Positions 1-32,000 of a stretch of DNA of 32,000 bases are shown here, piece by piece. A model generated the notes under the pieces. That model ran no database searches. It had not been told where the DNA came from and saw only the letters and a program-made list of their open reading frames with translations. The translations under genes and the position numbers were made by a program. This stretch comes from Candidatus Saccharimonadota bacterium. GTDB lineage: Bacteria; Bacillota_I; Bacilli_A; Mycoplasmatales; Hepatoplasmataceae. Within the stretch, counting starts at the first letter, position 1, and each line of letters starts with the position of its first letter. Location: NCBI GenBank assembly GCA_027925225.1, contig AP027131.1, positions 330,001 to 362,000 of the forward strand. The letters run 5' to 3'.

Positions 1-606
1 TAAAATTTGATTTTGATTATTCTCGACTCTACTTAATAAGTATTTTATTTCATTATTTTCTTTTATATTATCATTTCTTTTTTTTGAAGAAGTTTCAAAA
101 ATATTTTTTTCAAAAAATTTAATTTCATAATTAATAATATTTCTTAAATTTAAACTTCCTTTTCCTTTTCTTAAAAAATATTCAAAGTAAATATTTTCTT
201 CTTTTTTGATTTCTAAATTAGAAATAATAGTAATATCACCTTTAAAGTTTGCTTCTATTATTTTTTCTGTTGTTTCTGCTAATTTTCCATTAACATAAAT
301 ATTAAAATCTAAGGTTTTTTTAAATTCATCATTTAAAACATTTTTTAAAGAAATTTTAAAAAATAATTTCCCAAATTCAAGAATTTCAAATTTATTTGGA
401 TTAAGTTTTGTTTTAATGTATTTTTCATCAAAATTAATTATTTTAACTAATTTTGGTCTTATTTTTGTATTTTCTAGAAGTCCTAAAGGTAAAGAAATAT
501 ATTTTCCTGTTATTAATTTTTCTTTATTGGATATACATTTTTCATTACATTTTTTTTTAGATTCTAAAATAGGTTTATCATTTATTTGTTTTTTAATAAT
601 TTTCAT
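1..606 (-). CDS. Fibre-family paralog A, 5' part only (ORF runs off the window start): N-terminal beta-rich domain plus start of coiled coil
   Basis: ATG at 606-604 preceded by AAGGAAAA. Hand translation is open to position 1 (202 codons: MKIIKKQINDKPILESKKK...RVENNQNQIL). Roughly half the positions are identical by eye to the first 200 aa of the 662..1678 product. Absent from the ORF track because it has no stop inside the window. Confidence 0.7.
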   Translation of the reverse strand, partial: MKIIKKQINDKPILESKKKCNEKCISNKEKLITGKYISLPLGLLENTKIRPKLVKIINFDEKYIKTKLNPNKFEILEFGKLFFKISLKNVLNDEFKKTLDFNIYVNGKLAETTEKIIEANFKGDITIISNLEIKKEENIYFEYFLRKGKGSLNLRNIINYEIKFFEKNIFETSSKKRNDNIKENNEIKYLLSRVENNQNQIL

Positions 607-661: not shown

Positions 662-1678
662 TTAACTAATTCTTTTATAAACATATATGTTATATCCAAT
701 TCCCAATCCATAACCGATGTTATATTCAGATCCAACTAAATTTGTATAAGCTAATTTATTTACTAAAGTACCATTGTTAGATCCTATTACAAATGATTTA
801 CCATTTTGAAATGTATTAAAACTTGCAAGAGCAGTATTATCATTCTCTAGATTTTCAATAGTTGTATATTTATTAGATCATATGTGATTATGATTAATAA
901 TATTTCCTCTGCTTGTTACTTTTTCTATTTCACAAATAATTCCTTTTCCTTCATATAATGCTCCCAAATCTTCTCAAACACCATAAGGGGGTTTATTTAA
1001 TCCGCTAATAATAATAGTGCCTATTGGCAATTCCAGATTATCTGCTTTTAATTGAAGTTTTGATAATCTTTTTTTTAAGTTTAAAATTTTGTTTTCATTA
1101 TCAATAATTTGATTTAATAAAATATTTTTTTTGTTATTTTTTATATCATAATTATCATTATTTTCATTTTTTAAAAAATCTTCAAAAAATTTGATTCTAT
1201 AATGAATAGAATTACTTAAATTTAAATTACCCTTTTTTTCTTTTAATGAATAATTAAAATAAATAAAATCTCCTTTTTTAACATTTAAATCAGCAGAAAG
1301 AATAATATTTTTATTAAAATTTTCTTTTATTGGATATTCTACTGTTTTTTCTAGTTTATTGTTTACATAAATATTAAATTCTAGGGTTTTTTTAATTTCA
1401 TCATTTAAAACAGATTTTAAATAAATTTTAAATAAAATTTTACCACATTTAATAATATTAAACTTATTTGGAGAGAGTTGCTCTTTAATATAATTTTCAT
1501 TAAAAGAAATTATTTTTAATAAATTTGGTCTTATTTTTATATTATTTGAAATTTTTAAAGATGAAGAAGTGTATTTGCCTATTATTATTTTTTTCTCATT
1601 GGATACAAATTTTTCATCACCCCTTTTTTTTGATTTTAAAATATATTCATTGTTTATTTTTTCTTTAACAATTTTCAT
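662..1678 (-). CDS. Fibre-family paralog B (338 aa): N-terminal beta-rich domain, Asn/Leu coiled coil, LPIGTIII...PPYGVW junction, ~105-aa C-terminal domain with NHNHIW..YTTI motif
   Basis: Track ORF 974..1678 ends at TGA. Read-through in code 4 (TGA at 974 and 878) continues to TAA at 662-664. Strong RBS AGGAGG 7 nt upstream of the ATG at 1678. The C-terminal extension aligns with the extension of the 1746..2273 gene. Confidence 0.8.
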
Positions 1679-1745
1679 AATTTCCTCCTAAATAAACATT
1701 AAAATCTAATATGTAAAATACAAAACACTTAACAATAAGAATTTT

Positions 1746-2273
1746 TTATGATTCTCTTCTGAAAATTTTTGGAGATGTTCCAATACCAACACCATAAATT
1801 TTGTTGTATATATTATTTTCAATTAATTTTATATTATCAGTCTCAGATGATACAGTTATTTCTGATCCATCTTTTTTACCTAGTCAAAATTGATTTCCAT
1901 TAATATCATAAGTATTAAAACCTGAAAAAGCACTAATTTGCTTATCTAAACTTCCAATGGTTGTATATTCAGTAGTTCATATATGATTATGTTTAATAAT
2001 TGAACCATTTGATGATTCGCCACCTATAATTGTTTGACCACTTTCTAATGTTCCTAATGTTTTTCAAGTGCCAAAAAGCGGAGCTTCTTCTCCTATGATG
2101 ATTGTTCCGATTGGCAATTCTTCATCATCTTCTTGTAATTCTAGTTTTAATATTTGATTTTCTAAATTTAATATTTGATTTTGATTATCGAATATTTTAT
2201 TTAATAAAATATCTAAATCTTTTTCTAATTTTAAATTAGATTTATTATTTGTTTGTTTTTTTATAATTTCCAT
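1746..2273 (-). CDS. Fibre-family paralog C (175 aa): short coiled coil plus LPIGTIII...PLFGTW junction plus the same ~105-aa C-terminal domain (KHNHIWTTEYTTI)
   Basis: Track ORF 2064..2273 plus read-through of TGA at 2064, 1977 and 1884 to TAA at 1746-1748. RBS GGAGG upstream of the ATG at 2273. The C-terminal domain is collinear with paralog B. Confidence 0.75.
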
Positions 2274-2422: not shown

Positions 2423-3070
2423 ATGAATTTTTTTGTAAAAGAAAAAAATCACATTAGTTTGGGATTTTCAGTTTCTTTTTTATTATTAACTATTTCTGGT
2501 TTTTTAATTTTTATAATAATTGAAGAAAAATTTGGATATTTTCTTCTTTTTCTTCCTATTATTTTTATAATATTTTCTATTCTTAAAATTATAAAATCAT
2601 TTTTTTTGTTAAAAAATTTAAAAAAATTAGAAAACGAAACTTCTGATGAAAGAACAAATATTTATATTTTTGAAAATTGACATAAAAAAATTGTAATTAA
2701 TTTTTGAACATGAATAATTTTTCTCTTCTTTTATTTTTACATAACAATAATTTATACATTTTTATATTTTTTTGATGTAAAAGTAGTTGCAGATTTAAAA
2801 TATTGAATTTATATAATTTCAATTATTATAATTTCAATTATTACTTTTATTTTATATAAAGTTAATTTAACAATTTTAAGTAAAAATATAAATAATGGAA
2901 AAAAACATTTTGATAATGTCGAAGATCGAATAAATGAATTAAAACTTGTTTCTTTAAGTGTAAAAAATGATTATAAGTTTTTGCTTGTTTTAATAATTTC
3001 AACTTTTTTGGTTTTTCCTTTTATTTTTTGGTTTTTTCCTAAATTTAGGAAAAAATATAAAGAAATATAA
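2423..3070 (+). CDS. Hypothetical polytopic membrane protein (215 aa)
   Basis: Track ORF 2423..2680 continues through four TGA codons to TAA at 3068-3070. Several long hydrophobic Ile/Phe/Leu segments. Uses both TGA and TGG for Trp. Start uncertain: the GGAG lies about 20 nt upstream, which is far. Confidence 0.55.
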
Positions 3071-3084
3071 TTTTAAAATAAACA

Positions 3085-4131
3085 TTAAAAATTAATTTTT
3101 TTATTTTTTATTTTTCTGTTTAAATAAATTAATAATAAAAATAATCCCGAATAAATATAAGGTAGTCACATTATTATCATTCAAGAATCATATTTAAAAT
3201 TAGAGAAATTGCTATAAAATAATGGAAAAAATTGAAGTTGTGTTTGTGGTATTTCATTAAATTTTATTCCTTGATAAGTTAAATTTGTTATATTAGAAAT
3301 TTGTATTGTAAATATAGAATTTTGAAAAATTAAATATAAAAAATAAAAGGGGTTTAAAGTAAGTAAAATTTTTAAAACTCTAAAACTTTTAATATAATCA
3401 TCTGACACAATTATTGAATAATAAATTGTATTTGAAGAAACATCATAAAATTGATATGATTGATAATACAAAACTTCTTTATTATTAATACCTAGATATT
3501 GAAAAAACATGTCATTAAATACAAAAATTGTAGTAAATCAATAAGCTAACATTAATATAAATATAGAAACAAAAACAATATTAAAATTTTTATTACTCAT
3601 TATTTTTGATAATAAAAAAAATAATGAATATGAAAACATTAAAATTAAAAATAAACAATAAAGAGATATTGGAATATTTACTTTAAAGTTTTTGTATTTG
3701 TAAAGTGATTGTGTATTATTTTCTAAAAATCCAGTCTCAAAAAAAACTTTAATAAATAAAAAGAAAATAATCAAAAAGAAAATATTAATTAAAATAATTA
3801 CTGTAGAAATGGCAAAATAAAATATAAATTTATCTTCTTTTTCTTTTTTAAAAAACAACCTTTTGAATTTTAAATATATTGTTGTAAAAATATAATAATT
3901 TATAAAAATAAAAAGTGCAATAAAAACACCACTGATTACAACTTGTGGCTCAATTCCTATATCATTTATGATTCTTAAAGCCAAAAATAAAATAATAAAT
4001 GAAATTAAAAAAAATAAATAAATTTTTATATTAAAAAATATTTTTTTAAAAAATAAAATAAAATAATTAAAAAATAAACCCATATACCTTTTTTCTAAAA
4101 CATCATCTAAAATTCTTATTTGTTTTTTCAA
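3085..4131 (-). CDS. Polytopic membrane protein (348 aa), long member of the tandem membrane-protein paralog family
   Basis: Track ORFs 3538..4131 and 3181..3510 are in the same frame and are joined by TGA. Read-through of TGA at 3181 and one more reaches TAA at 3085-3087. N-terminal segment GLFFNYFILFFKKIFFNIK resembles the N-termini of the three downstream paralogs. The start is TTG at 4131, or ATG 16 codons downstream. Confidence 0.6.
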
Positions 4132-4550: not shown

Positions 4551-5306
4551 TTATTTATTAAATCTTCTAATGATTATTCTTTGCATTAAATTTAAAAATA
4601 TTAAAAAAAATAGAAATGGAACAAGTATTTTAGAAATATTATTAAATTTCATCATAATAACATTTGAAGAATTATTAAAAATAGCCAAAAGCACAAAATA
4701 AAATAAAAATTGTAAAACGAATACTCCTAATAAAAAAATATAAAATAAATTAAAGTTTCTCTCTTTTTTATTTTTAGTTTCATAAATTAAACTAATTATA
4801 AAAATAGAAATCAAATTAAAAACAAACATTAATATACTTGCATATATTAATGTTTTATAAATGTCTACAAGATCTCTTTCTTCTTGATTTTTATAATTAT
4901 TCATTTGAAAAATCATTACAGAAAAAAGAATTACTCAAAAAATAGTTAATATTAAAAAAACAATTATTATGTTTATTAATGTATTTTTATTATCTTTAAT
5001 TTGATTAAAATTATTTTTTTTAAGATATATATAACAATAATTTGTAATAAAAGTTATATATATTGCAAAAAAACACATTTTGCTTCTTCATTGATTAATA
5101 AATAATAAATATTTTTGCGAATCTTCTTGATAAATACTTTTAAAAAGTGTATTAACACTAAAAATAAGTGTTAAAAATAATAATAAAGAAATAATGAAAA
5201 AAACAACATTTTTAAAATTAAATAATTTTTTAATATAAAAAATAATTAAATAAAAAAAATTGTAAAATTCATCACTTTTATATTTTTTTGGAGTTTTTAA
5301 ATTCAC
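4551..5306 (-). CDS. Polytopic membrane protein paralog 1 (~251 aa)
   Basis: Track ORFs 5088..5306 and 4551..4916 share a frame. The gap 4917-5087 was hand-translated and contains only TGA codons. Conserved motif YIYLKKNNFNQIKDNKNT. GTG start at 5306 (uncertain). True TAA stop at 4551. Confidence 0.65.
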
Positions 5307-5335: not shown

Positions 5336-6097
5336 TTATTTATTATTTTTTTTTATATTTCTTACAATTGATCTTTGAAGAAGATTTAAAGAAAATAAGA
5401 TTAATATTAAAATAAAAAATGTAAAAGATATTATTTTTAAAATTTTTAAAGCTTCATCATTTTCTAATAATTTTATAACAAATAAAAGAAGAATAAATTG
5501 TATTATTATTATTGCTATTAAAAATATATAAAATAAATTTGTATGAATTTTTTGATTGTTAAAACCTTCGCTTATTAAGCTTAATAAAAAAATAAATATT
5601 AAATTATAAGAAAACATCAATAAATATAAAAATCAAATAATCTTATATCAATAACTCATATCTCCATTTTCATAATTTTTTTCTTTACTGGGAAATTCAA
5701 AAATAACTAAAATAAAAAATATCCCTCAAAATAAAAATAAAAGAAAAAAAACAATAAATGCATTACATAAGGTGTTCTTATTAGATTTTATTTGATTAAA
5801 ATTATTTTTTTTAAGATATATATAAGAATAAATGGTTATAAAAGTAAAATAAATTCCTAAAATACATATTTTAAATCTTAATTCATAAACAATAATATTT
5901 GTTTCATTTCCACTATTAAAATTTTCAATAATTAAGGAGATACTATAATAAACAGTTCATAGTAAAAAAAAGAAGACAAAAAAGAGAATTATATTTTTTA
6001 TATTTAAAAGTTTTCTTATATATAAACTAATTAAATAAAAAAAATTGTTAAATCTTTTCTCAAAAAATTCTTCTTTTCTTTTATCTATCTTGTACAA
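5336..6097 (-). CDS. Polytopic membrane protein paralog 2 (~253 aa)
   Basis: Track ORF 5336..5620 extends upstream through six TGA codons to a TAA at 6107-6109. Contains YIYLKKNNFNQIKSNKNT. There is no ATG near the N-terminus; TTG at 6097 is proposed by alignment to the paralogs. Confidence 0.6.
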
Positions 6098-6144: not shown

Positions 6145-6879
6145 TTAAATATTTTTTTTATAAAGTTTTCTAAAGATTATTTTTTCCAGTAAATTTAAAA
6201 TAAAAAATATAATCATGATGAAAAATAATATAAAGGATGTATTATGAAGTTTATCTAATATTTTATCATTAGATAAACTAATAAAATTTTGTATATTAAA
6301 AATAAAAATAATTTGTAAAACAATTACTAATATTAAAAAAATATAAAGAAAATTTGCTTTTTTGTGAATTTTTTTAAAAAATTCATTAATTAAACTAAAA
6401 ACAAAAAGAAATATTAAATTATAAAAAAACATAATAAAAAAAATATAAATTACAACATTATAATCATAAGAATTATAAAGATCTTTTAATGGCTTTATTT
6501 GAAAAAACATTATTGTAAATGTTGTGCCTCAACATAAAATAATAAAAAAAACAATAATGATTATATTTATCATTGTGTTTTTATTGGCGCTAATTTGTTT
6601 AAAATTATTCTTCTTTAAATATATATAAGAATAATTTATTATAAATGTAAAGAATATTCCGGTTATATATATTTTTAATCTTCATTGTCTAGTAATTATT
6701 CTTTCATCATTTGCGGTAGAATATTTTATTATTTCATTTAAATTTTCATAAAGTGTTCAAAGTGAAAAAAACAAGATTATAAACAAAATTATATTTTTTA
6801 AACCAAAAAGTTTTTTAATATGAAAAAACAAAATATATAAAAAATTATAGGACTTATTGAGCGTTTTTTTAGATTCCAT
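6145..6879 (-). CDS. Polytopic membrane protein paralog 3 (244 aa)
   Basis: Track ORF 6145..6510 extends upstream through TGA codons to the ATG at 6879 (MESKKTLNKSYNFLYILFF...). An in-frame TAA lies just upstream at 6883-6885. Contains YIYLKKNNFKQISANKNT. Confidence 0.65.
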
Positions 6880-7054: not shown

Positions 7055-8065
7055 ATGGAAAACGAAAGACAAAAAAAACTTTTATATCTAATAGTTTTTG
7101 ATTACATAAAGTATGGTAATCCTATTTCATCTTTTTCCCTTTTAAAAAATCATGATAATATAAATTTATCTTCAGCAACCTTAAGAAATGAAATGCTGTC
7201 TCTTGAAAAAGAAGGTTACATTGAAAAAGCACATAAATCTTCAGGAAGAATACCTACAAATAAAGGTTATGAATTTTATATAGAGAATATCGAAAAAAAA
7301 AATAGCGAAACAAATTTAATAAAAAATAAAATTGATAAACTTTTTACTAAACGTAATAAAAATATTGATGATGTAATAGAAGAAGCAATATCAATTATTA
7401 CTGATGCAACAAATACTTTTGCAATTTCGCACGAAGATAATAAAGATGTAAAAATTGAAGATATGCATTTTTATGAAGTGAAAAAAAATAAATTTCTTAC
7501 TTTAGTGATTGATTCAAATGGTAAATTATTTAATAAAGAAATTTTCTTAAAAAACGATGAAAATGAAATTGAAAATGTTAAAAGTGCTTTAAAAATAATT
7601 TCAAAAAGAATTATAGGAATAAAAATTTCAGATATTGAAAAAAGATTAAATTATATTTTTGAACTTATTTCAAAAGAATTAAAAAATATAGAACAAAATT
7701 TTCAGGTTTTTATTATAGAATTATTTAAACAAATTACCACAAGAGAAATAAATTATACAAACGGACTAAACAATATTGTAAGAATGGATTTTTATAACAA
7801 AAGAGAGCAAATTGAGAAAATTTTTAACATCATCCAAGAAAATTCAATATGAGATTTAATTTCAAAGCAAAAAGGAATAAAACATAAAGATACTAAAATT
7901 TTAATAAGTCTTGATAATGAAAATTTAAATGATGTTTCTTTAATTGAAAAAACAATAAAAGTTGGAGATAGTATAAAAAAAATAGCTTTTATTGGTTCTA
8001 AAAATCAAGATTATCAAAAATTGGTAAACATGATCGATATTTTGGATGAAAATTTAAAAGAGTAA
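7055..8065 (+). CDS. hrcA: Heat-inducible transcription repressor HrcA (336 aa)
   Basis: N-terminal winged-helix signature (SSATLRNEMLSLEKEGYIEKAHKSSGRIPTNKGYEFY). Track ORF 7055..7852 reads through TGA to TAA at 8063-8065. First gene of an hrcA-grpE-dnaK cluster. Confidence 0.9.
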
Positions 8066-8068
8066 AAA

Positions 8069-8611
8069 ATGGAAAATGAAAATAAAATAAATGAAAGTGA
8101 AATTCTTTCAAAAGAAAATGAAATTGAATTAGAAAAAATTGTTAATACTATAAAGGAGCTTGAAAATAAAAACCTTGAACTTCTTGCTGATATTGACAAT
8201 TTAAGAAAAAAACATCAAAAAGAAATAATAGAAACTGAAAAATATGCATTAATTAAATTTTTAAGAGATTTTTTATCTTCGTTTGATATGTTTGATTCAG
8301 TATTAAATAATAAAAATGTTTCAGAAGAAGTAAAAAATTGATTAAAAGGTTTTGAAATGATACATCAGAATATAAAAAATTTATTAGATCAATATAAAAT
8401 TAAAAAAGTTAATGCAAAATTAGGAGAAAATTTTAATAGTAATTATCATTTTGCAATTTCAGAAGATTTTTCTTCCGAAATAGAAAATGGAAGAATTTTA
8501 AAAATTTTACAAAATGGTTATTTATTAAATGACAGATTGATTAAACCTAGTATTGTTGTTATTTCAAAAGGTTTAAAAGAAGAAGAAAACGAAAATAAAG
8601 AGCAAAAATAA
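8069..8611 (+). CDS. grpE: Nucleotide exchange factor GrpE (180 aa)
   Basis: Track ORFs 8069..8341 and 8357..8611 are in the same frame and joined via TGA at 8339. GrpE-like coiled coil plus C-terminal beta domain (...QNGYLLNDRLIKPSIVVISK). Synteny supports the call. Confidence 0.9.
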
Positions 8612-8622
8612 AAAAAATATAG

Positions 8623-10443
<1,821 letters not shown>

Positions 10444-10444
10444 A

Positions 10445-11125
10445 ATGCTTTTAGATTTTGCAACAAAAAGAAGAGCGACAAAAAACTATAATCCAGACAT
10501 GTTTTTAAAAAAAGAAGATCTGGATTATATCTTTAAAGTTATAAATACTTCACCTACATCAGCGGGACTTGAACATTGGAGAGTTCTTTGTTTTAGAAAT
10601 AAAGATAAAAAAAATGAAATTCTTTCTGGAATAAATGAAGGAAATAAAAAGAAATTTTTAGATTCATCAGATGCATTACTTTTTTATGTAAAAAAAGAAG
10701 AATGATTTAAAAATATAAGTAATGAAGATTTTTATAAAATAGCAAAAAGAAACATAGAACAAGTAAATCAAACCTTTCATAAAGAAATAACAGAGGATCA
10801 AATTCAAACTTTTATGAAAAGAATCAGAGTCGATGATCATGCAAATAATGATCATAATTTAACTGAATGATCAAAAAGACAAGCTTATATTGCAGCAGGT
10901 TATGCATTTCTTGCCGCAAAAGAGATTAATGTTGAATCTACTCCTATGGAAGGATTTAATGAAAAAATATTAAATAAACTTCTTTTAGAAAAGGGATATA
11001 TAAATAATTTAGAAACAATAGCTTTAATTGTTTTATTAGGTTATAGCGATGGTGTTTCAATACCATATTTTGGTAAAGAACAAGTAAGAGAAAGTATTGA
11101 TAAGAAATTTAAAATTATTTATTAA
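10445..11125 (+). CDS. Nitroreductase-family NAD(P)H oxidoreductase (226 aa)
   Basis: N-terminus KRRATKNYNP...INTSPTSAGLEHWRV is typical of the nitroreductase fold. Track ORF 10445..10705 reads through two TGA codons to TAA at 11123-11125. The ATG lies 1 nt after the dnaK stop. Confidence 0.7.
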
Positions 11126-12548: not shown

Positions 12549-14450
12549 TTAAAAATCATCATCCATATCATTTATTTTTTTTCTATTTTTATATAAATTT
12601 ATTAAATAAAGAGCAAATACAACAATAAAAAATATAGGAATTACTAATAAAATATAGATATAATGGTTTTTTTCTAAATATAATTCTTCGTTTGCAAAAT
12701 AGATTTCATTAGGTTCTTTGTAATTATATTGATAACTTGTTTCATATTTTGTATTTATTAAATTACTTTTACTTCCTATATTATTTGGAATATAAATTTT
12801 AAAATTCGAATAATAAGAATCATTATTTAAATTTATAAGTTTAAATTGATATGTTTTTTGATTTTCGTTTTCACTTACTTTTTTTATTAATTGTAAATTA
12901 TTATAATCACTTGCATATCTTAAATTATCATTAGACTCATAGCTTAAATCTATGTTTTCCATTTGTAGAATTGTTGCATTTTCAAAAGTGACATTAAATG
13001 TTAATTTATCATTTTCTTTATTAATTATTTCTGCATTAATTATTTCTGCATTATTATTTATTGTATTTGAAAATTTAAATGGAAGATAATATGGAGGCAA
13101 ATTTTCATTTTCAAAATAAAAATCTGAATATTCATAACCTTTTTCTTTTTCTACATCATAATTGATCTCATATATCACAACTTTATCATATAAAGTTTCA
13201 ACATAATTAAGTTCAAGACTTTCTTTAATATCATCATTTAAAATATCATTTTTTTTATCATAAAAAATCGATAATGATAAATCACTATTTTCCTCTATTT
13301 TATTTGAGTAATCTACCATTATTTTGATTTTTTTATCATCAGTATATTTTATTATTGGAATATTTTTAATTATAAGATCATCTTTTTTTCAATTTGAGTA
13401 CTCTACTGTTATTGGTATTGTTGATACATAATCTTTTGGTATTAAATTTTTATAGATAAATTTAGGATAAAATTCTTTATCTAAGTAGTTATATTTAAAG
13501 TAATTTGTAGTTTGTATAAAAATATTGTAATTATCTGGTGAAATATTATAAATTTCATATATTAAGTTATCTCCTTTTCTTTCGATAAATTTCATATTTT
13601 TATTAGCGTCGGCCAATGTATAAAAATAAAAATCATTTTTAATTTCTATTTTATTTAAAATTCTTATTGAATTTAATTGATAAGAATTATAAATTTTAGT
13701 TGAAGGATTATAGATATTTATCGTATATGAAAGATAATCATTATTTATATTTTCTGTATAAGAAATACTCTGAGGGTTTATTGTTAGTCTTTCAAAAGAA
13801 GTAAGAACGTGACTATCATTACCATTTATTTTTGATGAAAAAATAGGTTCATTTTCATCATTATAATAAAATTTAAAATCATAATAATCAGTTGCATTAA
13901 ATATTAAATCATCAATTTCATATACATAAAAATGAGTATTTTCATATAAATTTAATTTTGATTTAATTTCTTTTTTAAAAATTAAATTTCCTTGTTGATC
14001 TTCATAAATTTCATTACTATCATATTTTTTATAGTCATAAGTTATTTTTAAATTATCTTTATTTTCAAAAAAATTATCATCATTTGTTACAAAAATAAAA
14101 TCAAATATATCTTTTTGATTACTTATATTTTTATGTTTATATATACTAATTGGATAATAATTATTATCAACATCATAATTTATTTTTTTTATATTTTCTA
14201 AATTGTATTTTAGATTTTTAATAAAAAAATCTCAGTGAGCAAAAATATAATTCACTCCAACTGATCCAACAAAATCTATTAAATATTCTTTTTTATTTAA
14301 AATAAATTCTTTTTCGTTTTTTGTAATTCTTATATTTTTTTCATATAAATCTACATCTTTTTTATAAAAAAGAGTTGAAAAAGAAACTATAAAAACACTA
14401 AGAGTTATAATAGAAAGAAGTAAAATTCTTTTTTTATTATTTAATTTCAT
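12549..14450 (-). CDS. Asn/Tyr/Asp-rich bitopic surface protein (633 aa): N-terminal signal-anchor and C-terminal TM anchor
   Basis: Track ORFs 14232..14450, 13389..13616 and 12549..13319 share a frame. Both gaps were hand-translated and contain no TAA or TAG. N-terminus MKLNNKKRILLLSIITLSVFIVSF; C-terminus YIYILLVIPIFFIVVFALYLINLYKNRKK. Confidence 0.75.
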
Positions 14451-16438: not shown

Positions 16439-17376
16439 AAATTGTTTTTTTGGGAAACCCAGATATCTCTGTAGAAACATTAAAATCATTATTGGAAGAA
16501 GAAAAAATAGAAATTACTCTTATTATTACTAATATTGAAAAAAAAATAGGAAGAAATAAAGTTGTTAGCAATTCAGAGCTTGCAAAATTTTCAAATTTTA
16601 AAAAATTAAAAATATTAAAAACAGAAAATATAAATAACGATTATATTTATTTAAAAGAAAACTTTGAATTTGATTATCTTCTTACGTGTGCATTTGGTCA
16701 ATTTTTATCAGAAAATATTCTTTCTCTTCCAAAAAAAGCTGCATTAAATATACATGCATCTTTACTTCCGAAGGGAAGAGGAGGAGCTCCAATTCATTGA
16801 GCAGTAATCAACGGAGAAAAAGAAACAGGATATTCTTTAATGAGAATGATAAAAGAAATGGATGCAGGGGAATACTTTATACAACACAAAGTAAAAATAT
16901 CAAAAAACGAAACATATGATAGCCTAAAAGCAAAAATTATTAAATCAATAAAAGAAAACATTGTGAGTGATCTCTTAAAATTTGATCAAGGAAAATTAAA
17001 AGGAATTGAGCAAGATAAAAATAAAATAAGTTTTTGAAAAAATATAAAACAAGAAGATGAAAAAATAGATTTTAATTTAGAAGCAGAAAATATTTCAAAC
17101 AAAATAATGGGATTAAATTCTATTCCAGGAGCTTATGGTTTAATTAATGATTTAAATATTAAATTATGAACTTCTAGCTTTGAAAAAAATAATAAAAAAT
17201 ATAAAAATAATAAATTTGGAGAAATTTTAAAAATTGATAAAAATGGAATATTAATAAAAGCAAAAAATGGATTAATTTTAATAAATGAGATAACAATCCC
17301 AGGAAAAAAAAGAAATCAATTGGAAAATATTATAAATGGTAAATTGCCATTTAAGGTCGGCGACATTTTTAATTAA
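16420..17376 (+). CDS. fmt: Methionyl-tRNA formyltransferase (318 aa)
   Basis: IVFLGNPDISV..., HASLLPKGRGGAPIH-W(TGA)-AVINGEKETG, then C-terminal domain. Track ORFs 16420..16800 and 16840..17037 are in the same frame. RBS AGAGGAAAG. Overlaps the DUF2779 3' end by 19 nt. Confidence 0.9.
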
Positions 17377-22598: not shown

Positions 22599-23375
22599 TT
22601 AAGATTTTCTTTTATAAATATTTAGATTAATAGAATCATTTTTATCATTTAATAAAGTTTTAATTAAAAATCAGTTTCCGTATTTAGGTAAAACTCCATT
22701 ACTTATAATAACACTACCCACCGGAAGCATTAATTTATTAATCATTAAAATTAATAAATCTAATTGTTTTTGTAAATTAATAATTTCTAGACTTTCATTA
22801 TTTAAAACGCTTTCTGTGATTCTATTTAATTTAAGATTTAATTCTTTTAAATCTGCTTTATTAGCTTTTGTTTTTAAAGCATTATCAACATAAATTTTGG
22901 GAGTTGGATTTGTATTTTTTGTTGGCATTAAAATTTTATTTTTTTCATCAACAATATCTACTCCGTTTGTAAGGATTCTTAATTTTGTAAAACTTTCTGT
23001 TTTATCATCAATATTTTTAATATATGGATAAGAATAATTCTCATCATAATTAAATGATCCTAATTTATCAATATTTTTGTCATTTAAAGAAAATTGAATT
23101 GATTTATTATTTACTAATTTTTCTAATTTTATCAATCTTCAATTTATATTTTTATTTACTTTTGCTTGACTTATTCCACCTTCTAAAAAATTATTTGCTG
23201 TTGGTATTTCTAAAGTGCTTAAAATAGAAACACTATCTTTTAAAATGTGATTAAATCCATAAATAGATATATTATTTAAATTTTCATCAGCAATATTAAG
23301 AGTACCAGTTAATTCACTTGTTATTGTAAATGAACTTCTTCCATCTATTGAAAATACATTTTCGATATTTAGCAC
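22599..23375 (-). CDS. 3'-terminal remainder of the giant fibre gene (~258 codons from GTG 23375): end of head module 4 plus the family C-terminal cassette. Separated from the main ORF by the frameshifted segment
   Basis: Track ORFs 23139..23375 and 22671..23135 share the frame of the giant ORF and are joined by TGA. Read-through of TGA at 22671 gives ...MLPVGSVIISNGVLPKYGNWFLIKTLLNDKNDSINLNIYKRKS then TAA at 22599. Frame 0 is open upstream only to the TAA at 23475-23477. Independent translation is unproven. Confidence 0.5.
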
Positions 23376-24245
23376 TAATGAGTTTGTTGGAATTAGAATT
23401 CCAGCTAAAGTATTGTTTATATAATAAGAAACAAATATAAATTGATAATTACATCATGTTTCAGAAAATGAGAGATTATTGCCATTTAAAACTGAAATTT
23501 CATTTAATTGACGATTATTTTTAAATCCTCATATTCCAGTTAAAGATGAATCACTAGTTGTAAAATCAGTTTTATTAGTAAAAGTTAAATATTGTAATGT
23601 TCCAAAATAATTCATTGCAACATTTGAAAATATTTTATCTGTTTTTACAATATTAAAAGTTGTTTGTTGATTATTTGTTACTTGAGATTTAATTATTAAA
23701 AAATCATAATTTAAATAACTTTCACTCAATGTTGTATTGGTTCCATCATTAAGATGTGTACTTGGGAAAGAATAAGTAGAAATTTTTTCTATTCCTTGAA
23801 ATTTATTATTTGTAATTAAAGATTTATTAAATTTTTTAAATTTAATTTCATGATCAGAAACAACATTCATATAAAAACCATAATAATTTGGATTATCATC
23901 ATTATTATTAATATCACAAATACTATTATTAACATTTTCTCCAACTAAACTAAAACCACCATTTTTAAAATAATTTATATTTGCATCACTTGTTACAGAT
24001 TTAAAGAAATAAATATTATTATTTGTTATTGAATTAAATGATGTTCTTGAAGATAAACCTGCATTTTGTCCAGAAATTAAATTTGTTTCCTCAAACTCTT
24101 CTTCATCTGCAATTTTACCTACTAAATTATTTATTTTAATTTCAAAAGTATTAATAGCATTATGAATGCCAACATGGGCATTTGCATTTTCTACATTTAA
24201 ATTTTTTTGAATATTAGAATTTTCAGAAATTGATTCTAAAGAAGA
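23142..24245 (-). repeat. Head module 4 (~368 aa, SSLESISENSNIQ ... GISQAKVNKNIN), carrying the two frameshifts
   Basis: Same block order. The homologous peptide KNNRQLNEISVLNGNNLSFSE is encoded in the +1 frame between 23462 and 23517. Confidence 0.75.
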
Positions 24246-27200
24246 ATTTTCACTTAATAAAAGAGAAGTAATATTTAATTTTCAAGGTCATTCTCTAATC
24301 GTTACATCATTTAAAGTAAGCTTTGGATAATTATAATTTCCTTCTTTTATTGTTGTTAATTCTGATACATTTGTTTCGCCTTGAATTAAATAAGGGTTCA
24401 TTCCTCTAGATGAATTTGTATCACTATCATCAATTAGTTTTGATGTAGAGATTTTTATTACTGTTGTTCCACTTATTATTCCTGCTACTTCTGTATTTAA
24501 AGTATCTAATTCTGTACTTAAACTTTCTATATCTGTTGTATTTGTCTGAGTTTGAATTAAATAAGGGTTTATTCCGTCATCTGGATTTGTAACACTATCA
24601 TCTTCTAATGCTGATGTATTAGGTGTTGTTGTTATTACTGTTGTTCCATTTGTTATTCCTTCAACTTCTGTACTTAAAGTGTCTACTTCTGTATTTAAAC
24701 TTTCTATATCTGTTGTATTTGTTTGGGCTTGAATTAAATATGAATTTATTCCGTCATCTGGATTTGTAGCACTATCATCTTGTAATGTTGATGTATTAGG
24801 TGTTGTTGTTATTACTGTTGTTCCACTTGTTATTCCTTCAACTTCTGTACTTAAAGCATCTATTTCTGTTGTATTTGTTTGAGCTTGAACTAAATAAGGA
24901 TTTATCCCTTCATCTGGATTTGTAGCACTATCATCTTGTAATGTTGATGTATTGGGTGTTGTTGTTATTACTGTTGTTCCACTTGTTATTCCTTCAACTT
25001 CTGTACTTAAAGCATCTATTTCTGTATTTAAACTTTCTATATCTGTTGTATTTGTTTGAACTTGAACTAAATAAGGATTTATTCCTTCGGTTGGATTTGT
25101 AGCACTATCATCTTCCATAGATGAAGATGATGATAATATTTCTATGCCTGAAGGTCATTCATCTATTGCTTCTCCATTAATAATTAATTGCGGATAATTA
25201 TAAAGGCCTTCCTCTATTATTATTAATTGAGCACGATTATTTATTATATCGTCTTGAGTTTTATTAAAATCTGATTTATTAACTTTGGTTTCAATATTTA
25301 AAATATTTTCATCAATTTGTGTTTTTCAAGGATTTATTCCTTCTGTTGGATTTATAGCACTATCATCTGTAATTTTTGAAGAAATAGAAGTTACAAAAAG
25401 AGGATCTGTTCCGTCTATTATTCCTGTTATTGTATCATCTAAAGATGAAATTTCTGTATCTAAAGTATCTACTTCTGTATTTAAATTTTCTATATCTGTA
25501 GCATTTGTCTGAGTTTGAATTAAATAAGGATTTATTCCTTCAGTTGGATTTTCACTGCTATCATCAATAACTAAAGAACTTAAAGATTTTTTTGTTATAG
25601 GTATTGTCCCATTTTTTATTCCTGTTAATTCTGTATTTAAAGTTTCAACTTCTGTATTTAAATTTGTTATATTTTGAGTATTTTCTTGATTTTGAATTAA
25701 ATAAGGATTTATTCCTTCGGTTGGATTTTCACTGCTATCATCTACTAATTCAGAAGAAGATGGAATATCTTCCTCTGAAGGTCATGATTCTATTATCTCT
25801 TCATTTAATTTTAATTGAGGAAAGTTATAATCACCTTCTTTTATTAATTCTAAATCTTCAGTATTTTGAGTAACAATTGTATTCATTTCATCTAAATCTA
25901 ATTGATTTGCTTTTGTTGATATATTTAATTTATTTTCATCAAGTTGTGTTTTTCAAGTATTTATTCCTTCTGTTGGATTTTCACTACTATCATCTGTAAC
26001 TAACGAACTTAAAGAATTTTTTGCTGTAGGTATTGTTCCGTCTATTATTCCTGATACTTCTGTATTTAAAGAATCTACTTCTGTATTTAAATTTTCTATA
26101 TCTGTAGCATTTGTCTGAGTTTGAATTAAATAAGGATTTATTCCTTCTGTTGGATTTGTAGTACTATCATCTGCAACTAATGAACTTAAAGAATTTTCTG
26201 CAATAGGTATTGTTCCGTCTATTATTCCTGCTACTTCTGTATTTAAAATATCTATTTCAGAACTTAAATTTGTTATATTATCTGTATTTTCTTGAACTTG
26301 AATTAAATAAGGATTTATTCCTTCTGTTGGATTTTCATCACTATCAATTATTAATGAAGAAGTATTTGGAGTAGTTTCAATAGGTATTGTTCCGTCTATT
26401 ATTCCTGTTACTTCTGTATTTATAGTATCTATTTCGGTGTTTAAATTATTCATTTTTATATTTAAGGAATCTATGTTTGTAGTATTTTCTTGTCCTTGAA
26501 TTAAATAAGGATTTATTTCTTTGGTTGGATTTTCATCACTATCATCAGAAATTAAGCCTGAATATATTAAATTCCCTTGATTTCATGTTTTTATTAAATA
26601 ATTATTTAATATCAACTGAGGATAATTATATGTTCCATTTTTTATTAAAATTAAATCTGCAGTGTTTTGAACAATATCTCCATTTATTGAACATAAATCT
26701 GATTGATCAATTTTTTCTTCATTTAAATACATTAAACTATTTTGCACATTTTCATTAACTTCAGCTTGATTGCTTCCGCCTTCAAGTATGCTAAAAACTG
26801 TTGGTATTTTTGATGTATTTAAACTAGAAATTGCATCTTTTAAAATATGATTAAGTCCATAAATTTCTACATTGCTTAATTTTCAACTAATATTATTGAA
26901 AGTTCCTTCTAATTCATTTATTAATTTAAATGAACTTCTTGCATCGATTGAAAACCTATTATTATTATTTAATATTATTGAATTTGTTGGAATTAAAATT
27001 CCTGATAATTTATTATCAATATAATAAGAAACAAAAATAAATTGATAATTAGTTCATGTTTCTGAAAATGAAAAATTAATATCACTTAAAACTGCAATTC
27101 TATTTAACTGATGATTATTTTTAAAGCCTCATATTCCAAGCAATGAAGAATCACTAGCAATAAAATCTGTTTCATTAGTAAAAGTTAAATATTGTAATGT

Positions 27201-30200
27201 TCCAAAATAATTCGTTGCAACACTAGAAACAATTTTATCTGTTTTTACAATATTAAAAGTAGTTTGTTGATTGTTTGCTACTTGAGATTTAATTATTAAA
27301 AAATCATAATTTAAATAGCTTTCACTTAATGATGTATTAGTTCTATCATTAAGTTGAATATTAGAAAAAGGATATGCAGAAATTCTTTCTATACCTGTAA
27401 AACTGTTGGTTGTATTTGAAGACGGAGTAAATTTTGTAAAGGTAATGTCATAATCAGATATAACACTAGAATAAAAACCAAAATAAGCTGAATTTTCACT
27501 ATTTGTAGTATTATAGGAAATATTATTAATTTTTTCTCCAATTGAATTTATACCTGCATTTCTTAAAAAATCTGTAGTTTTATCGCCTGTTGAAGATTTT
27601 AAAAAATAAACATTATTATCTGTTATTGGATAAGGTAATGTTTTTTCAGTTAGACTTGGGGCTTGCTCTGAAATTATATTAATTTCTTCAATTGGTTCTT
27701 CATCTGTAATTTTACCTTTTAGATTTTTTATTCTATCTTCTAAAATATCAAAAGTATTATGAATAACTAAATGATCATTGACATTTTCTTGATTTATTAT
27801 TTCTTGATTTATTGCTGTTCCTGTAATCGACTCTAAAGAGGAATCAGTTGCTTTTACAAAAGAAGTATCTTTTGCTTCATCTTCTAAAAATCATTTTGTA
27901 ATTGTTTGCCCGTCTAAAATTAATTGTGGATAATCAAAAGTTCCTTCCTTTATTGTTGTTAGATCTGAATTATTTTTTTCAACAATTAAATTTGTTTCAT
28001 CTAAATTAATTTGATCTGATTTTAATAAAATATCTGCTTCATTTTTATCAATTTGTGTTAAATTTGGATTTATTCCCAGCATAGGATTAATCTCTTTATC
28101 GTCAGTCACTAAACCTGAATATATTGAATTTTCTAAATTTCATGTTTTTATTACATAATTATTCAAAGTAAGTTGAGGATAATCATAAATACCAGTTTTT
28201 ATTGATGTTAAATAATTTTGTACATTTTCATTAATTTCCGCTTGATTGTTTCCGCCCTCTAATGTACTATTTGATATTGATATTTTTGAAGTACCAACAC
28301 TAGAAACTCAATCATTTCAAATATGATTAAATCCATAAATTTCTATATCAGTCAATTTACCATCATTATCAACTAAAATACCTTCAAAATCACTTATTAA
28401 TGTAAGATGATTTCTTCCATCTAATGAAAATGTAATCCCTTTATTTAACACTATTGAATTTGTTGGAACTAAAAGACCACCTAAAACTCCACTTATGTAA
28501 TAAGAAATAAAGATAAATTGATAATTAGTTCATGTTTCTGAAAAAATAAAATTTGCATCATTTAAAATTGCAATTTTTTCTAATTTACGAGTATTTTTAA
28601 ATCCTCATATTCCAAGTAATGATGAATCATTCATTATAAAATCTGTTTCATTAGTAAAAGTTAAATATTTTAATGTACCAATATAACTCATTCCAACATC
28701 AGAAATTATTTTATCTGTTTTTACAATATCAAAAATAATTTGTTGATTAACTTGTATTTGAGATTTAATTATTAAAAAATCATAATTTAAATAACTTTCA
28801 CTTAATGTTGTAGTTGTTCTATCATTAAGTTTAGTATTTAAAAAAGAATATCCTGAGATTTTTTCTACTCCTTGAACATCATTACTGGCATTTAAAGGTT
28901 TAGCAAATTTTCCAAAAGTAACATCATTATCAGAAACAACATGCATATAAAAACCATGATAATTTGAATCATTAGAAGAATCTGGATTATGATGTGCATT
29001 AGTAAGATTTTCTCCTATTAAATTTAATCCAAAATTTAAAAAACCGTCTGGATTTTTAGTAATATAAATAAAATTATTTTCTGTTATTGGAAAAAGTAAT
29101 GTTTTTTCATTAAAACTTGGAGACTGTTCTGGTAATAGAATAATTTCTTCAATTTCATCTTCATCTGCAATTTTACCCATTATATTATTTGCTTCTAATT
29201 TTAAATCATTAATAGCATCATGAATAGATAAATGATTATTAACATTTTCCTTATTTACTGCCTCTTGATTTATTTCAGTTTGAGAAATTGATTCCAAAGA
29301 AGAATTGAAAAGCGAAAGAAGTGAAGTATTTCCTGTTCAATCTTCTGAACTTCAATTATTAATTAATTCTCCATTTAAATTAAGTTGAGGATAATTATAA
29401 GTTCCTTCTTTTATTTTTAATAAATCTGAACTATTTTGATTAACAACTGTGTTTATTTCATCAAAATTAGTTTGGTTTGCTTTTAAGGAAACATTTTCTA
29501 AGTTTGTATTTATTTGTGTTAAAAGTGGATTTATTCCTAATGTAGGATTAATATCAATATCATCAGTTATTTCACTAGAAGTTGGGGGTTCTTCTGAATT
29601 CCCTAAGGGTCATGTTGTAATTACTTCATTATTTAAAGTAAGCTGAGAATAATCATAAGTTCCAGTTTTTATTTCTGATAAATCAGTTTGTACATTTTCA
29701 TTAACTTCTTGTTGATTTTCTCCATCTTCAGATGTACTATCAACTGTTGGTATTTTTGATGTATTTAAACTAGAATCTTTATCTTTTAAAATATGATTAA
29801 GACCATAAATTTCTACATTACTTAATTTATTGTCAATATTATTAAAAGTACCTTCTATTTGATTTTCTAATGTAAATGAACTTCTACCATCTATTGAAAA
29901 TATATTTTTATTTTTTATTATTAATGAATTTGTTGGAATTAAAATTCCTGATAATTTACTATCGATATAATAAGAAACAAAAATAAATTGATAATTTTTT
30001 CATGTTTCTGAAAATGAAAAATTAGTATCACTTAAAATTGCAATTCTATTTAATTGATTAGTATTTTTTAATCCTCATATTTCAAGTAAAGAAGAATCAC
30101 TAATTGTAAAATCTTTTTCATTAGTAAAAGTTAAATATTGTAATACTCCAAAATAATTAATTGCAACATCAGAAATTATTTTATCTGTTTTTACAATATT

Positions 30201-31115
30201 AAAAGTTGTTTGATTATTGTTTGCTATTTTAGATTTAAAAATTAAAAAATCATAATTTGAATAATTTTCACTTAATGTTGTATTAGTTCTATCATTAAGT
30301 AATTTGTAATCAGGAAAAGAATACCCAGAAATTTTTTCTATACCTGTAAAAATATTATTTAAATTTGAGGGTTGAGCAAATTTTGTAAAAGTAATATCAT
30401 AATCAGAAATAATACTCATATAAAAACCATAATAGTTTGAATTATTACTATTTGCAGAATTATAAGAAATATTATTAACCTTTTCTCCAATTAAGTTTAA
30501 TCATCCATTTTTAAAGAAATCTGTAGTTTTATCATTTGTTGTAGATTTAAAAAAATAAATATTATTATCTGTTATTGAAAAGGGTAATATTTTTTCAGTT
30601 AGACTTGCATCTTGATCTGGAATTAATTGAATTTCTTCTATTTCTTTTTCATCTTCTGTTTTTCCAGCTATACTATCAATTCCTATTTTTAAGGAATTAA
30701 AAGTATTGTGGATTTTTTTGTGTTCATTAACATTTTCTTCATTTGCTGTTTTTTGATTTAAAGCAACACCAGAAAGTGATTCTAACGAAGAATCAAAAAG
30801 AGAAACAGAAGAAGTGTCTATTTCTACTTCATTTTCAGATAATTTATTAATTTTTTTATTATTTAAAAATTTTTTTGATTGATTAAAAACTTCATTCCTA
30901 ACTTTAATTAAATTTGTGTCATTTTCGGCACTTTTAATATTAATATTATTTAAACTAGTTTGATTTGTTTTAATATTAATATTTTCTAATTCTTTTACAT
31001 CTAATTTTTTAAAAGGCTTAGAAAACATTTGATTTTCATTTTTTTTAATTGGTGTAAAATTATTATTTTCTTTATTTAAATTTTCGAATTTATTTGTTGT
31101 TTTTTTTAATTTCAT
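23514..31115 (-). CDS. Giant modular fibre-like protein, intact reading frame of 2533 codons (conceptually 2838 codons to 22599 if two 1-nt indels are corrected)
   Basis: Nine track ORFs (30501..31115 down to 22671..23135) all lie in the same minus-strand frame. I hand-translated every gap: 30420-30500, 29298-30074, 28110-28604, 26454-27890, 25119-25952 and 23871-24287. They contain only TGA codons, no TAA or TAG. ATG at 31115 with RBS AGAGGAGAT. The first true stop is TAA at 23514-23516. Confidence 0.8.
24288..26546 (-). repeat. Stalk array: 12 tandem coding repeats of 52-85 aa, each starting (D/S/T)xNPxxGINPYLxQ
   Basis: Nine a-type units: NPTEGINPYLIQ.Q.NT.DI..LNTE.D.L.TEV.GI..GT..I, followed by a Ser/Thr linker and DDS. 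Two b-type units: NPTEGINxWKTQ.DEN...IKEG.YN(Y/F)PQL.LN...I..W. One hybrid last unit. The 3'-most four a-units (24480-25115) are nearly identical at the DNA level. Confidence 0.85.
26742..27842 (-). repeat. Head module 3 (~367 aa, SSLESITGTAINQ ... NQAEVNENVQ)
   Basis: Same block order. It starts 1461 nt downstream of the module 2 start. Confidence 0.8.
28218..29303 (-). repeat. Head module 2 (~362 aa, SSLESISQTEINQ ... NQAEINENVQ)
   Basis: Same block order as module 1. It starts 1488 nt downstream of the module 1 start. Confidence 0.8.
29688..30791 (-). repeat. Head module 1 of the giant protein (~368 aa, SSLESLSGVALNQ ... QQEVNENVQ)
   Basis: Collinear with modules 2-4. Shared blocks: IH..FN/ coiled segment, EEI.LIP.Q..SL.EK.LP..IT.NN.YF, N.YYGFY...SD.D.TF.KF, G.EKISGYSF, LNDRT.TTLSE.Y.NYDFLI.KS, F.IVKTDKI.S, L.YLTFTN..DF...DSSL..IWG.KN, FSETW.NYQFIF.SYYI, PTNS, FS.DGR, EIYG.NHI. 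Confidence 0.8.
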
Positions 31116-31467: not shown

Positions 31468-32000
31468 CTAAGATTTTCTTATATAAACATTTAAATTATT
31501 TATTTCATTTTTGCTTAAATTATTATCATTTGATAATTTTTTTACTAAAGATCAATTACCATAATTTGGTAAATATTTATCACCAACAATGATACTACCT
31601 ATTGGAAGCATTAAATTATCAACCATAGATACTAATGAATTTATTTGTGTTTGTAAATTAGTAATAATATTATTATTTTTATTTAGGACATCTCTTTTAA
31701 TTTGATTTATTTGTAAATAAAATCTTCTTAAATCTGTTTTATTTAATTTTTCTGCTAAAAGATTATCAACATAAAGTTTAGATGTTATATTTGAATCTGA
31801 TTTTGGTAATAATGCATTACCATTTCCGTCAATAATATCTACTCCTGTTGTTAGAACTCTTAATTCTGCAACATTTCCATTTTTATTATCAAAATTTTTA
31901 ATAAATGGAGAAGCGTCAACATCATTATAACCAAATAATTTCATTTCATCATTTTCATTATTATTTAAAGAAGTAGGAATTACTTCACTATTTATTGATC
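31468..32000 (-). CDS. Fibre-family member, 3' part only (ORF enters from beyond the window end); the C-terminal ~150 aa are homologous to the giant protein C-terminus
   Basis: Track ORF 31552..31944 has no stop upstream of its ATG out to position 32000. Read-through of TGA at 31552 gives ...MLPIGSIIVGDKYLPNYGNWSLVKKLSNDNNLSKNEINNLNVYIRKS then TAG at 31468. It aligns with the giant C-terminus (LRVLTTGVDIIDG / LRILTNGVDIVDE; KLYVDNLL / KIYVDNAL). Confidence 0.75.

Follow-up and report, generated by a model that had tools for sequence, protein, structure and literature searches.

The window analysed here is a stretch of 32,000 nucleotides (nt) of extremely AT-rich DNA (GC content 14-28%), and at its left edge lie three consecutive minus-strand genes, which we call A (<1..606), B (662..1678) and C (1746..2273), that are related to one another and to two giant genes towards the right end, and whose products look very much like the distal parts of bacteriophage tail fibres. 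The organism is Candidatus Hepatoplasma vulgare, which uses genetic code 4: protein B is HPAVJP_3020 and protein C is HPAVJP_3030 of this species, both at 100% identity, and gene A is probably HPAVJP_3010. This mollicute, an isopod gut symbiont, comes from the pill bug Armadillidium vulgare and is represented by a metagenome-assembled genome of 662,108 bp (PMC10928387). In open reading frame (ORF) calls across the window, code 4 yields about twice as much coding sequence as code 11 (10,535 versus 5,258 amino acids) and restores the housekeeping genes hrcA, grpE, dnaK, dnaJ, fmt, holA and rpsT intact. Code-4 calling also reproduces exactly the genes of the initial annotation, all on the minus strand, and in A, B and C alike the ATG is preceded, at a distance of 5-8 nt, by a strong AGGAGG-type ribosome-binding site. 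A scan for promoters and terminators was uninformative in such AT-rich DNA (37 sites in the window against 32 expected).

Gene B encodes 338 amino acids and reads as a short fibre equivalent to the distal ~310 residues of code-4 phage tail fibres. It consists of a beta jelly roll of the TNF/C1q type, a predicted trimeric knob (residues 31-166; 1181..1588), then one long helix, which we take to be a coiled coil (residues 178-214; 1037..1147), and finally a C-terminal domain that we call the tip (residues 215-338; 665..1036), in which lie Trp235 (TGA at 974-976) and an HNH motif (884-892) and with which the protein ends as ...YGLGIGYNIYVYKRIS. Gene C, of 175 amino acids, has an N-terminal peptide, a coiled coil (nt 2133-2270) and a tip (nt 1749-2123) containing Trp70 (TGA at 2064-2066) and its own HNH (1983-1991). 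The portion of gene A inside the window specifies the N-terminal 202 amino acids, namely a Lys-rich peptide, a TNF/C1q-like jelly roll (about nt 112-507) and the start of a coiled coil, with the C-terminus and tip lying beyond the window edge. Identity is 52% between A and B (202 amino acids, E 1.6e-55) and 40% between B and C (178 amino acids, E 5.7e-35), and in the alignment the coiled-coil register of B is conserved in C and in the giants; ORF calls, these identities and the junction alignment all bear out the common plan that had been proposed for the three small genes and the giant gene. It had also been stated that the family lacks signal peptides, lipoboxes and transmembrane helices, and indeed no segment of A, B or C reaches transmembrane-level hydrophobicity (maximum Kyte-Doolittle 19-residue score 0.7-1.1) and no lipobox was found in their N-termini, so that neither the signal peptide plus lipobox of a mollicute surface lipoprotein nor the transmembrane anchor of a membrane adhesin is present in the three proteins.

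In all four genes whose C-terminus falls inside the window (B, C and the two giants), a helical segment precedes a junction motif, LP(I/V)G(T/S)(I/V)I followed after 5-7 residues by P.(Y/F)G.W (LPIGTIIISGLNKPPYGVW, LPIGTIIIGEEAPLFGTW, LPVGSVIISNGVLPKYGNW, LPIGSIIVGDKYLPNYGNW), whose final Trp is encoded by TGA in every one of them. In fact all Trp codons in B, C and the giant are TGA and never TGG, and gene A has no Trp at all. We read the junction TGA as Trp and not as a stop, the case that the initial annotation had named as fatal to its reading, because this column is nearly invariant Trp in an alignment of 39 homologues and because, in the DNA of 16 genes, the codon is TGA in 14 and TGG in two (L003/P0010 and the fourth tip gene of contig L009).

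Beyond the junction, B and C run on for ~105 further residues, including the HNH motif, and end in YG(L/V)GIG.....(Y/F)(K/R)R.S. The conserved domain that had been noticed here is recovered in both proteins by a profile hidden Markov model (HMM) of the tip built from 39 sequences, over positions 2-125 and with E values of 1.1e-34 for B and 9e-41 for C. Throughout these 39 sequences the order of elements is a hairpin LP.G..I....P.YG.W, then (E)DLG.L.(E)GQ.IIGG.SS.G, an HxH motif, a variable middle and, at the very end, N(K/R)A(Y/W)GLG.G...(V/I)W(K/R)R. Each of the two histidines of HxH (H95 and H97 in C numbering) is present in at least 90% of the sequences, and seven members (P0016, P0024, P0033, P0034, P0035, P0037 and P0040) carry 2-5 extra HxH motifs inserted right after the first. 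The extra motifs stand roughly 3-12 residues apart, P0035 having the most regular spacing (about 8), and their arrangement recalls multi-iron needle domains.

The search of other proteomes with a tip profile, which had been suggested at the outset, was run as an exhaustive hmmsearch of 1.84 billion representative proteins with a profile of three sequences, and it gave 41 hits at E<=1e-3, 24 of them at E<=1e-10, of which about 38 are credible (P0038 and P0041 are apparently spurious and P0042 is borderline). In every credible match the tip ends within one residue of the C-terminus, in proteins of 163-1155 amino acids. Word-indexed searches returned almost nothing, a single 49%-identical protein from a Logan assembly, and tblastn of a tip against 50,697 GenBank phage records gave no match. 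Pfam, PHROG and PDB sequences, searched with single proteins and with the 39-sequence profile, left the family unmatched as well, so that the already characterised, unrelated family to which the domain might have belonged was not seen in any of the three. Judged by these sequence comparisons, the tip appears to be a compact and previously undescribed domain family. DNA pattern scans of IMG/VR gave zero hits in one case, and in another the pattern NKAYGLG(I/V)G matched an unrelated viral protein ending ...TNKAYGLGIGVNNNLSPVANFRIYWKIGK (L018-L021, GC ~29%), which has the same terminal motif as the tip, but neither the LPIG hairpin nor HxH.

The N-terminal half of B is far better defined structurally than the tip. 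In an AlphaFold 2 (AF2) model built on a 29-sequence alignment, residues 1-25 are disordered (predicted local distance difference test, pLDDT, <50), residues 31-166 form a beta jelly roll (pLDDT 93-98), residues 178-214 a single long helix (mostly 71-88 as 10-residue block means) and residues 215-338 a beta-rich tip (46-89). Foldseek against the PDB assigns the jelly roll to the TNF/C1q fold with probability 1.0 (E 5.6e-7 to 1e-5, target TM-score 0.55-0.66), its matches including EDA-A1 (1rj7, E 5.6e-7), C1QL3, BclA, ExsFA/BxpB, the BC2L-C lectin and the central spike knob of phage phi812 (9eul), and many phage fibre heads in BFVD match it too. The domain has no Pfam match in A or B, C1q included, and we can nonetheless predict confidently that in both it is a TNF/C1q-like jelly roll. 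Its fold is that of BclA, ExsFA/BxpB, the heads of phage collagen-like fibres and the phi812 spike knob; C1q/TNF-like heads are usually C-terminal in a fibre, whereas in A and B the knob lies inside the chain, ahead of a coiled coil and of a second, different terminal domain. This knob, like the connection with phages, was absent from the initial annotation. We infer from the TNF/C1q-like fold together with the long helix that A, B and C would form homotrimers.

For the tip itself, the AF2 monomer is too uncertain to assign a fold, and when the whole B model was compared with the PDB the jelly roll alone was matched. The model of C shows a helix (residues 2-47) and then a beta-rich tip, with hairpin strands at 58-61 and 70-75, and Foldseek gave it no PDB match below E 0.7; its best hits had a beta-prism lectin fold, at a probability of about 0.1, which we do not accept. 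In the solved trimeric fibres of T4 gp37, R1/R2 pyocin, P2 gpV and phi92 gp138, three HxH pairs make an octahedral axial metal site, and such sites bind Fe or Zn, with Zn in gp12 (PMC6116203). The tip likewise has HxH in a C-terminal fibre domain, some members multiply it as in the gp37 needle, and by analogy with T4 gp37 and R-pyocin fibres a metal ion is most likely bound by it along the three-fold axis; with the gp37, pyocin and gpV tips it shares this motif and no sequence similarity.

All ten loci of relatives examined are AT-rich with in-frame TGA as Trp (GC 19-30% in the eight checked), the retrieved loci are untranslatable by the standard bacterial code, and the code-4 reading frame is intact wherever checked; where the DNA was examined, relatives lie either on phage-like contigs (five, one of them phi29-like) or on Hepatoplasma-like contigs. 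The phi29-like contig (L010, 12 kb) encodes a protein-primed polymerase of family B (PF03175; phrog_1907, E 2e-69), which shares about 24% identity with those of Cp-1 and Bacillus phi29-like phages, and an upper collar connector (phrog_2038, E 5e-22), two genes after which, behind a 173-amino-acid gene, comes a tip protein of 608 amino acids. Gene order suggests that this protein occupies the appendage or fibre position of such phages, that of gp12 in phi29 and Cp-1. The gp12 of phi29 is a beta-helix tailspike with an autochaperone, unlike the L010 protein, a coiled-coil fibre that bears a C1q-like knob and the new tip. A second contig (L004, 31.7 kb) has a portal protein (phrog_64) together with scaffold and capsid genes read by eye, without a PHROG hit, and the N-terminus of its fibre P0020 (8289-11183) weakly matches a head-tail adaptor (phrog_541, E 3e-4). 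A third (L002, 11 kb) has a capsid-like protein resembling that of L004 (again by eye, with no PHROG hit), a DNA polymerase, a Sak4-like protein and DUF669, and the N-terminus of its fibre P0024 (1560-5027) is similar to that of P0020, phrog_541 having been scored on P0020 only. An adaptor::fibre fusion of this kind, encoded one gene downstream of a putative capsid gene, would be unusual; the adaptor-like N-terminus has no counterpart in A, B or C. A fourth (L009, 13.6 kb) carries a tail protein (phrog_2248) and four tandem tip genes at 7490-10447 (370, 213, 195 and 201 amino acids), of which at least three share an N-terminal peptide, and the array has the look of several receptor-binding proteins, whether alternative or multiple.

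The homologues on these four contigs thus sit in phage structural-gene regions, as expected of fibre or receptor-binding genes, and they are the C-terminal ends of tail-fibre or appendage proteins, in keeping with the fibre-like character that had first been suspected. Residues 34-338 of B match, from end to end, the C-terminal ~310 residues of five phage proteins (P0007, P0009, P0010, P0011 and P0013; BLASTP, E 4e-40 to 4e-23), and the 202 amino acids of A match the jelly-roll region of P0007, P0009, P0010 and P0013 (E 3e-25 to 1e-13). The tip is therefore probably the distal end of the fibres of phages that read TGA as Trp, and since they do so, Mollicutes are their obvious hosts.

The giant gene of the window (22599..31115, minus strand, a code-4 ORF of 2838 amino acids) and a second gene of the same type (31468..>31998, minus strand, also a code-4 ORF) carry the family in another direction. 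The last 175 amino acids of the giant are 45% identical to the product of the second gene (E 2.5e-40), and both retain a mere remnant of the tip: the last 42 amino acids in the giant (22602..22727), with the hairpin LPVGSVIISNGVLPKYGNW, its Trp TGA at 22671-22673 and the end ...NLNIYKRKS, and the last 46, in the same truncated form, in the second gene (31471..31608). On the giants the tip profile matches positions 2-30 only (E about 4e-6), and past the Trp both keep about 20 residues, ending N(I/V)Y(K/I)RKS, so that about 80 residues of the tip are internally missing, close to the deletion of ~75 that had been proposed. A graded series in a related mollicute agrees with this. On the Hepatoplasma-like contig L011 (Logan ERR14127475, GC 19%, from the same sample as L001), one gene keeps positions 2-53 and 98-124, another 2-42 and 95-124, and another about 2-45 followed by HIWKRID, with a full-length copy adjoining them, and the giants are the extreme of this type of series (positions 2-30 plus YKRKS). 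Shortened tips are confined to Hepatoplasma-type chromosomal genes, and the full tip is common to phage and chromosomal copies; because the full-length form is shared with phages, we take it as ancestral, the change having run by deletion and not by insertion. What is always retained is the hairpin directly after the coiled coil, which may cap it. This hairpin may bear some likeness to the foldon of T4 fibritin, and a phmmer search of the giant's C-terminal 58 amino acids against the PDB, in which a foldon-like match was sought, returned nothing.

The bodies of the giants are also partly familiar. Repeats of the NPTEGINP(Y/W) type in the giant are shared with its paralogues HPAVJP_2990 (E 1e-54) and HPAVJP_3000 (E 8e-17), shorter modules are shared with the phage fibres P0013, P0010 and P0007 (E 2e-9 to 3e-7), and the segment before the coiled coil in the second giant-type gene is 49% identical to the N-terminal region of P0013. 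By sequence, the giants appear to be mosaics of phage-fibre modules with the middle of the tip deleted. The shared NPTEGINP(Y/W) and coiled-coil modules sit between four units of ~370 amino acids (residues ~95-470, 590-960, 1085-1450 and 2280-2650) in which 138 of 377 columns are invariant, and these units have no Pfam match and no relative among the phage contig proteins; an HMM of them picked out a marginal N-terminal motif in one phage-contig protein only, and they remain orphans. The window's giant gene is one of the long, repeat-bearing ORFs found in Hepatoplasmataceae, for which Kawato et al. (2024) proposed an adhesin role (PMC10928387); there the giant ORFs were not connected with phage fibres or with the small tandem genes, and the H. 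vulgare units could not be modelled.

The chromosomal family is larger than the window reveals. NCBI records place further full-tip paralogues just to its left, HPAVJP_2930 (163 amino acids), HPAVJP_2990 (681) and HPAVJP_3000 (467, with the same N-terminal domain as A and B), and others elsewhere in the genome, HPAVJP_5650 and HPAVJP_5660, so that with HPAVJP_3020 and HPAVJP_3030, and probably HPAVJP_3010 (gene A), H. vulgare has at least eight full-tip copies. In a related mollicute, a tandem pair of tip-family genes adjoins lepA, and on L011 two genes (316-1125 and 2318-2995) encode proteins in which four or two N-terminal transmembrane helices lead into a coiled coil and a tip shortened internally. 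The initial annotation had missed the five paralogues outside the window and these transmembrane-anchored relatives. A neighbour-joining tree, which has no support values, splits the chromosomal copies into at least three groups, with phage copies in between.

How does the tip compare with the tail-collar domain, which the initial annotation had in mind when it described a tail-collar-type tip? The general plan is certainly alike: in the T4 gp10/gp11/gp12-type collar, as in the tip, a C-terminal domain of trimeric fibres has a hydrophobic strand, P.xGW and HxH, in the same order, and ends in a hydrophobic strand plus K/R; hhalign, only when run at its most permissive, lines up the HxH motifs of the two and sets LG.L..GQ.IIGG against LPDL-RG..vG. 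The difference is that the collar core, (C/A)(D/N)G...FxLPDLRGR, is absent: the tip W is directly followed by (E)DLG.L.EGQAIIGG, with none of the ~35 residues of the core, and no HMM or profile-profile similarity to the collar families PF07484 and PF21939 (Gp10_C) was found. As controls we used six phage proteins found with a Collar-like probe and confirmed by Pfam, all of which match PF07484 (E 1e-21 to 4e-26) and three of which also match PF21939, whereas A, B, C and the C-terminus of the second giant-type gene have no match to either family at E<=1, and none of the 39 members has one at E<=10. An hhalign comparison of the tip profile with the six Collar/Gp10_C proteins gave a probability of 0.25% and E 0.24 over 9-16 aligned columns. 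By these tests the tip is not a member of the tail-collar family, the likeness being one of short motifs and general plan, and the tail-collar label is not supported. Very remote homology stays conceivable, and we regard it as improbable that the tip is a PF07484/T4 gp12-type domain that has simply shed CDG...LPDLRGR, the more so as the tip matches no PDB sequence or fold.

Taken as a statement of molecular identity, the view that these proteins are phage-type trimeric fibres with a new tip-domain family is well supported, and homology, phage context, domain order, the C1q-like fold, conservation of HxH and the deletion series are all computed results. As proposed here, A, B and C would derive from receptor-binding tail fibres or appendages of code-4 phages, that is, phages of Mollicutes, with a plan that runs from a Lys-rich peptide through a TNF/C1q-like knob (in A and B), a three-stranded coiled coil and the hairpin junction LPIGTIII..P.YG.W to the ~105-residue tip, which in phages would be the distal, ligand-binding end. 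C would be a minimal fibre, a coiled coil with a tip, and the giants mosaics of the same modules that have lost the middle of the tip and been left with the hairpin capping the coiled coil. The chromosomal family, in many diversified copies, would have been kept as binding fibres, most likely for surface attachment. We give a little better than an even chance to the proposal that A, B and C are phage-derived homotrimeric receptor-binding fibres kept by the cell, likely for attachment, and we favour retention by selection because old and intact paralogues are found at several sites, because membrane-anchored variants exist and because the coding investment is large for a 662-kb genome. Several observations weigh on the other side. 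Export is unexplained, since signal peptides, lipoboxes and transmembrane helices are all missing from A, B, C and the giants, and the anchored tips on L011 would be cytoplasmic by the positive-inside rule, as weakly suggested by eye. The absence of phage genes covers the window only, and such genes may lie beside HPAVJP_2930-3000. The interleaved tree also fits repeated phage traffic instead of a single stable domestication. Trimer formation, metal binding, ligand binding, cellular localisation and the cellular role are inferred, and the tip remains without a fold assignment at the model confidence (AF2 pLDDT 46-89) and Foldseek values (nothing below E 0.7) given above.

The chief rival holds that the genes are receptor-binding cassettes of a resident prophage, phage remnant or phage-derived particle and serve the phage, for instance as alternative host-range tips. 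Outside the Hepatoplasma-like copies every characterisable relative does lie on a phage-like contig, L009 has just such tandem small tip genes, the chromosomal groups are interleaved with phage copies, and export signals are lacking, as they would be in virion proteins. We think this unlikely all the same, if worth taking seriously, in view of the housekeeping neighbours, of the lack, in the 32 kb, of any recognised gene for a capsid, portal, terminase, polymerase or integrase, of the spread of the family over at least three separate chromosomal sites, of paralogues that are old (40-52% identity) yet intact in a reduced genome, and of relatives fused to transmembrane helices; phi29-like phages, moreover, are not known to lysogenise. 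The cell might instead encode the fibre fragments as anti-phage decoys that mask its own receptor or that co-assemble with, and poison, the fibre subunits of a phage. What the tip bound ancestrally was presumably some component of the mollicute surface, since its homologues are fibres on TGA-as-Trp contigs, the transmembrane-anchored variants with shortened tips keep the coiled coil and hairpin, likely trimerisation elements, and Hepatoplasmataceae carry CRISPR-Cas9 and restriction-modification (PMC10928387); the giants are far larger than a decoy needs to be, and we judge decoys quite improbable, slightly more so than a collar domain without its core. Gene C, finally, had been suggested to be a minimal fibre, or a tip or chaperone subunit. 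That C is a chaperone or separate tip subunit completing the tipless giants draws on its small size and on the coiled coil and junction that it shares with them (E 3.5e-4 and 2e-6), and is very hard to credit, given that C is a full paralogue of the tip of B and of those of the phages, keeps all the conserved residues and matches the profile over its C-terminal 125 amino acids, that it lies 20 kb from the giants and upstream, not downstream, of B, and that independent small genes of coiled coil plus tip exist in phage L009. A minimal fibre is the best fit, given the four such small genes in tandem on that contig.

A bolder version of the attachment proposal, which we find doubtful and offer tentatively, is that the symbiont permanently domesticated the fibres of its own phages, the small genes acting as interchangeable tips and the giants as tipless concatenated modules, in an attachment apparatus or phage shield whose export is free of signal peptides. 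Whatever the cellular role, the tip domain, present on phi29-like and other phage-like TGA-as-Trp contigs, would be a first handle on host recognition by phages of wall-less bacteria, and the giant Hepatoplasmataceae ORFs, published as possible adhesins of unknown ancestry, can now be read as phage-fibre mosaics. If the chromosomal copies are functional, phage receptor-binding proteins would have been recruited by a symbiont with a 662-kb genome. Protein C, small and soluble at 175 amino acids, is an easy target for structure and binding assays.

Among the translations of the window, no phage structural, replication or integration gene was recognised. Rightwards of A, B and C come multi-pass membrane proteins and then hrcA-grpE-dnaK-dnaJ: two multi-transmembrane proteins (2423-3070, plus strand, and 3085-4083, minus strand) lie between the small fibre genes and hrcA, as do three paralogous multi-pass proteins (4551-5078, 5336-5659 and 6145-6879, minus strand), which match one another at E 2e-23 to 5e-5. 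When the membrane proteins beside gene C were compared with the transmembrane parts of the L011 fusions, no similarity was significant (best E 0.6). Two Asn/Tyr-rich proteins, of 633 and 445 amino acids (12549-14450, minus strand, and 17438-18775, plus strand), carry a hydrophobic segment at the N-terminus and a transmembrane anchor at the C-terminus and are, unlike the fibre family, candidate true surface proteins. Between them, a 636-amino-acid ORF (14528-16438) has 19 nt (16420-16438) in common with the beginning of the methionyl-tRNA formyltransferase gene (16420-17376).

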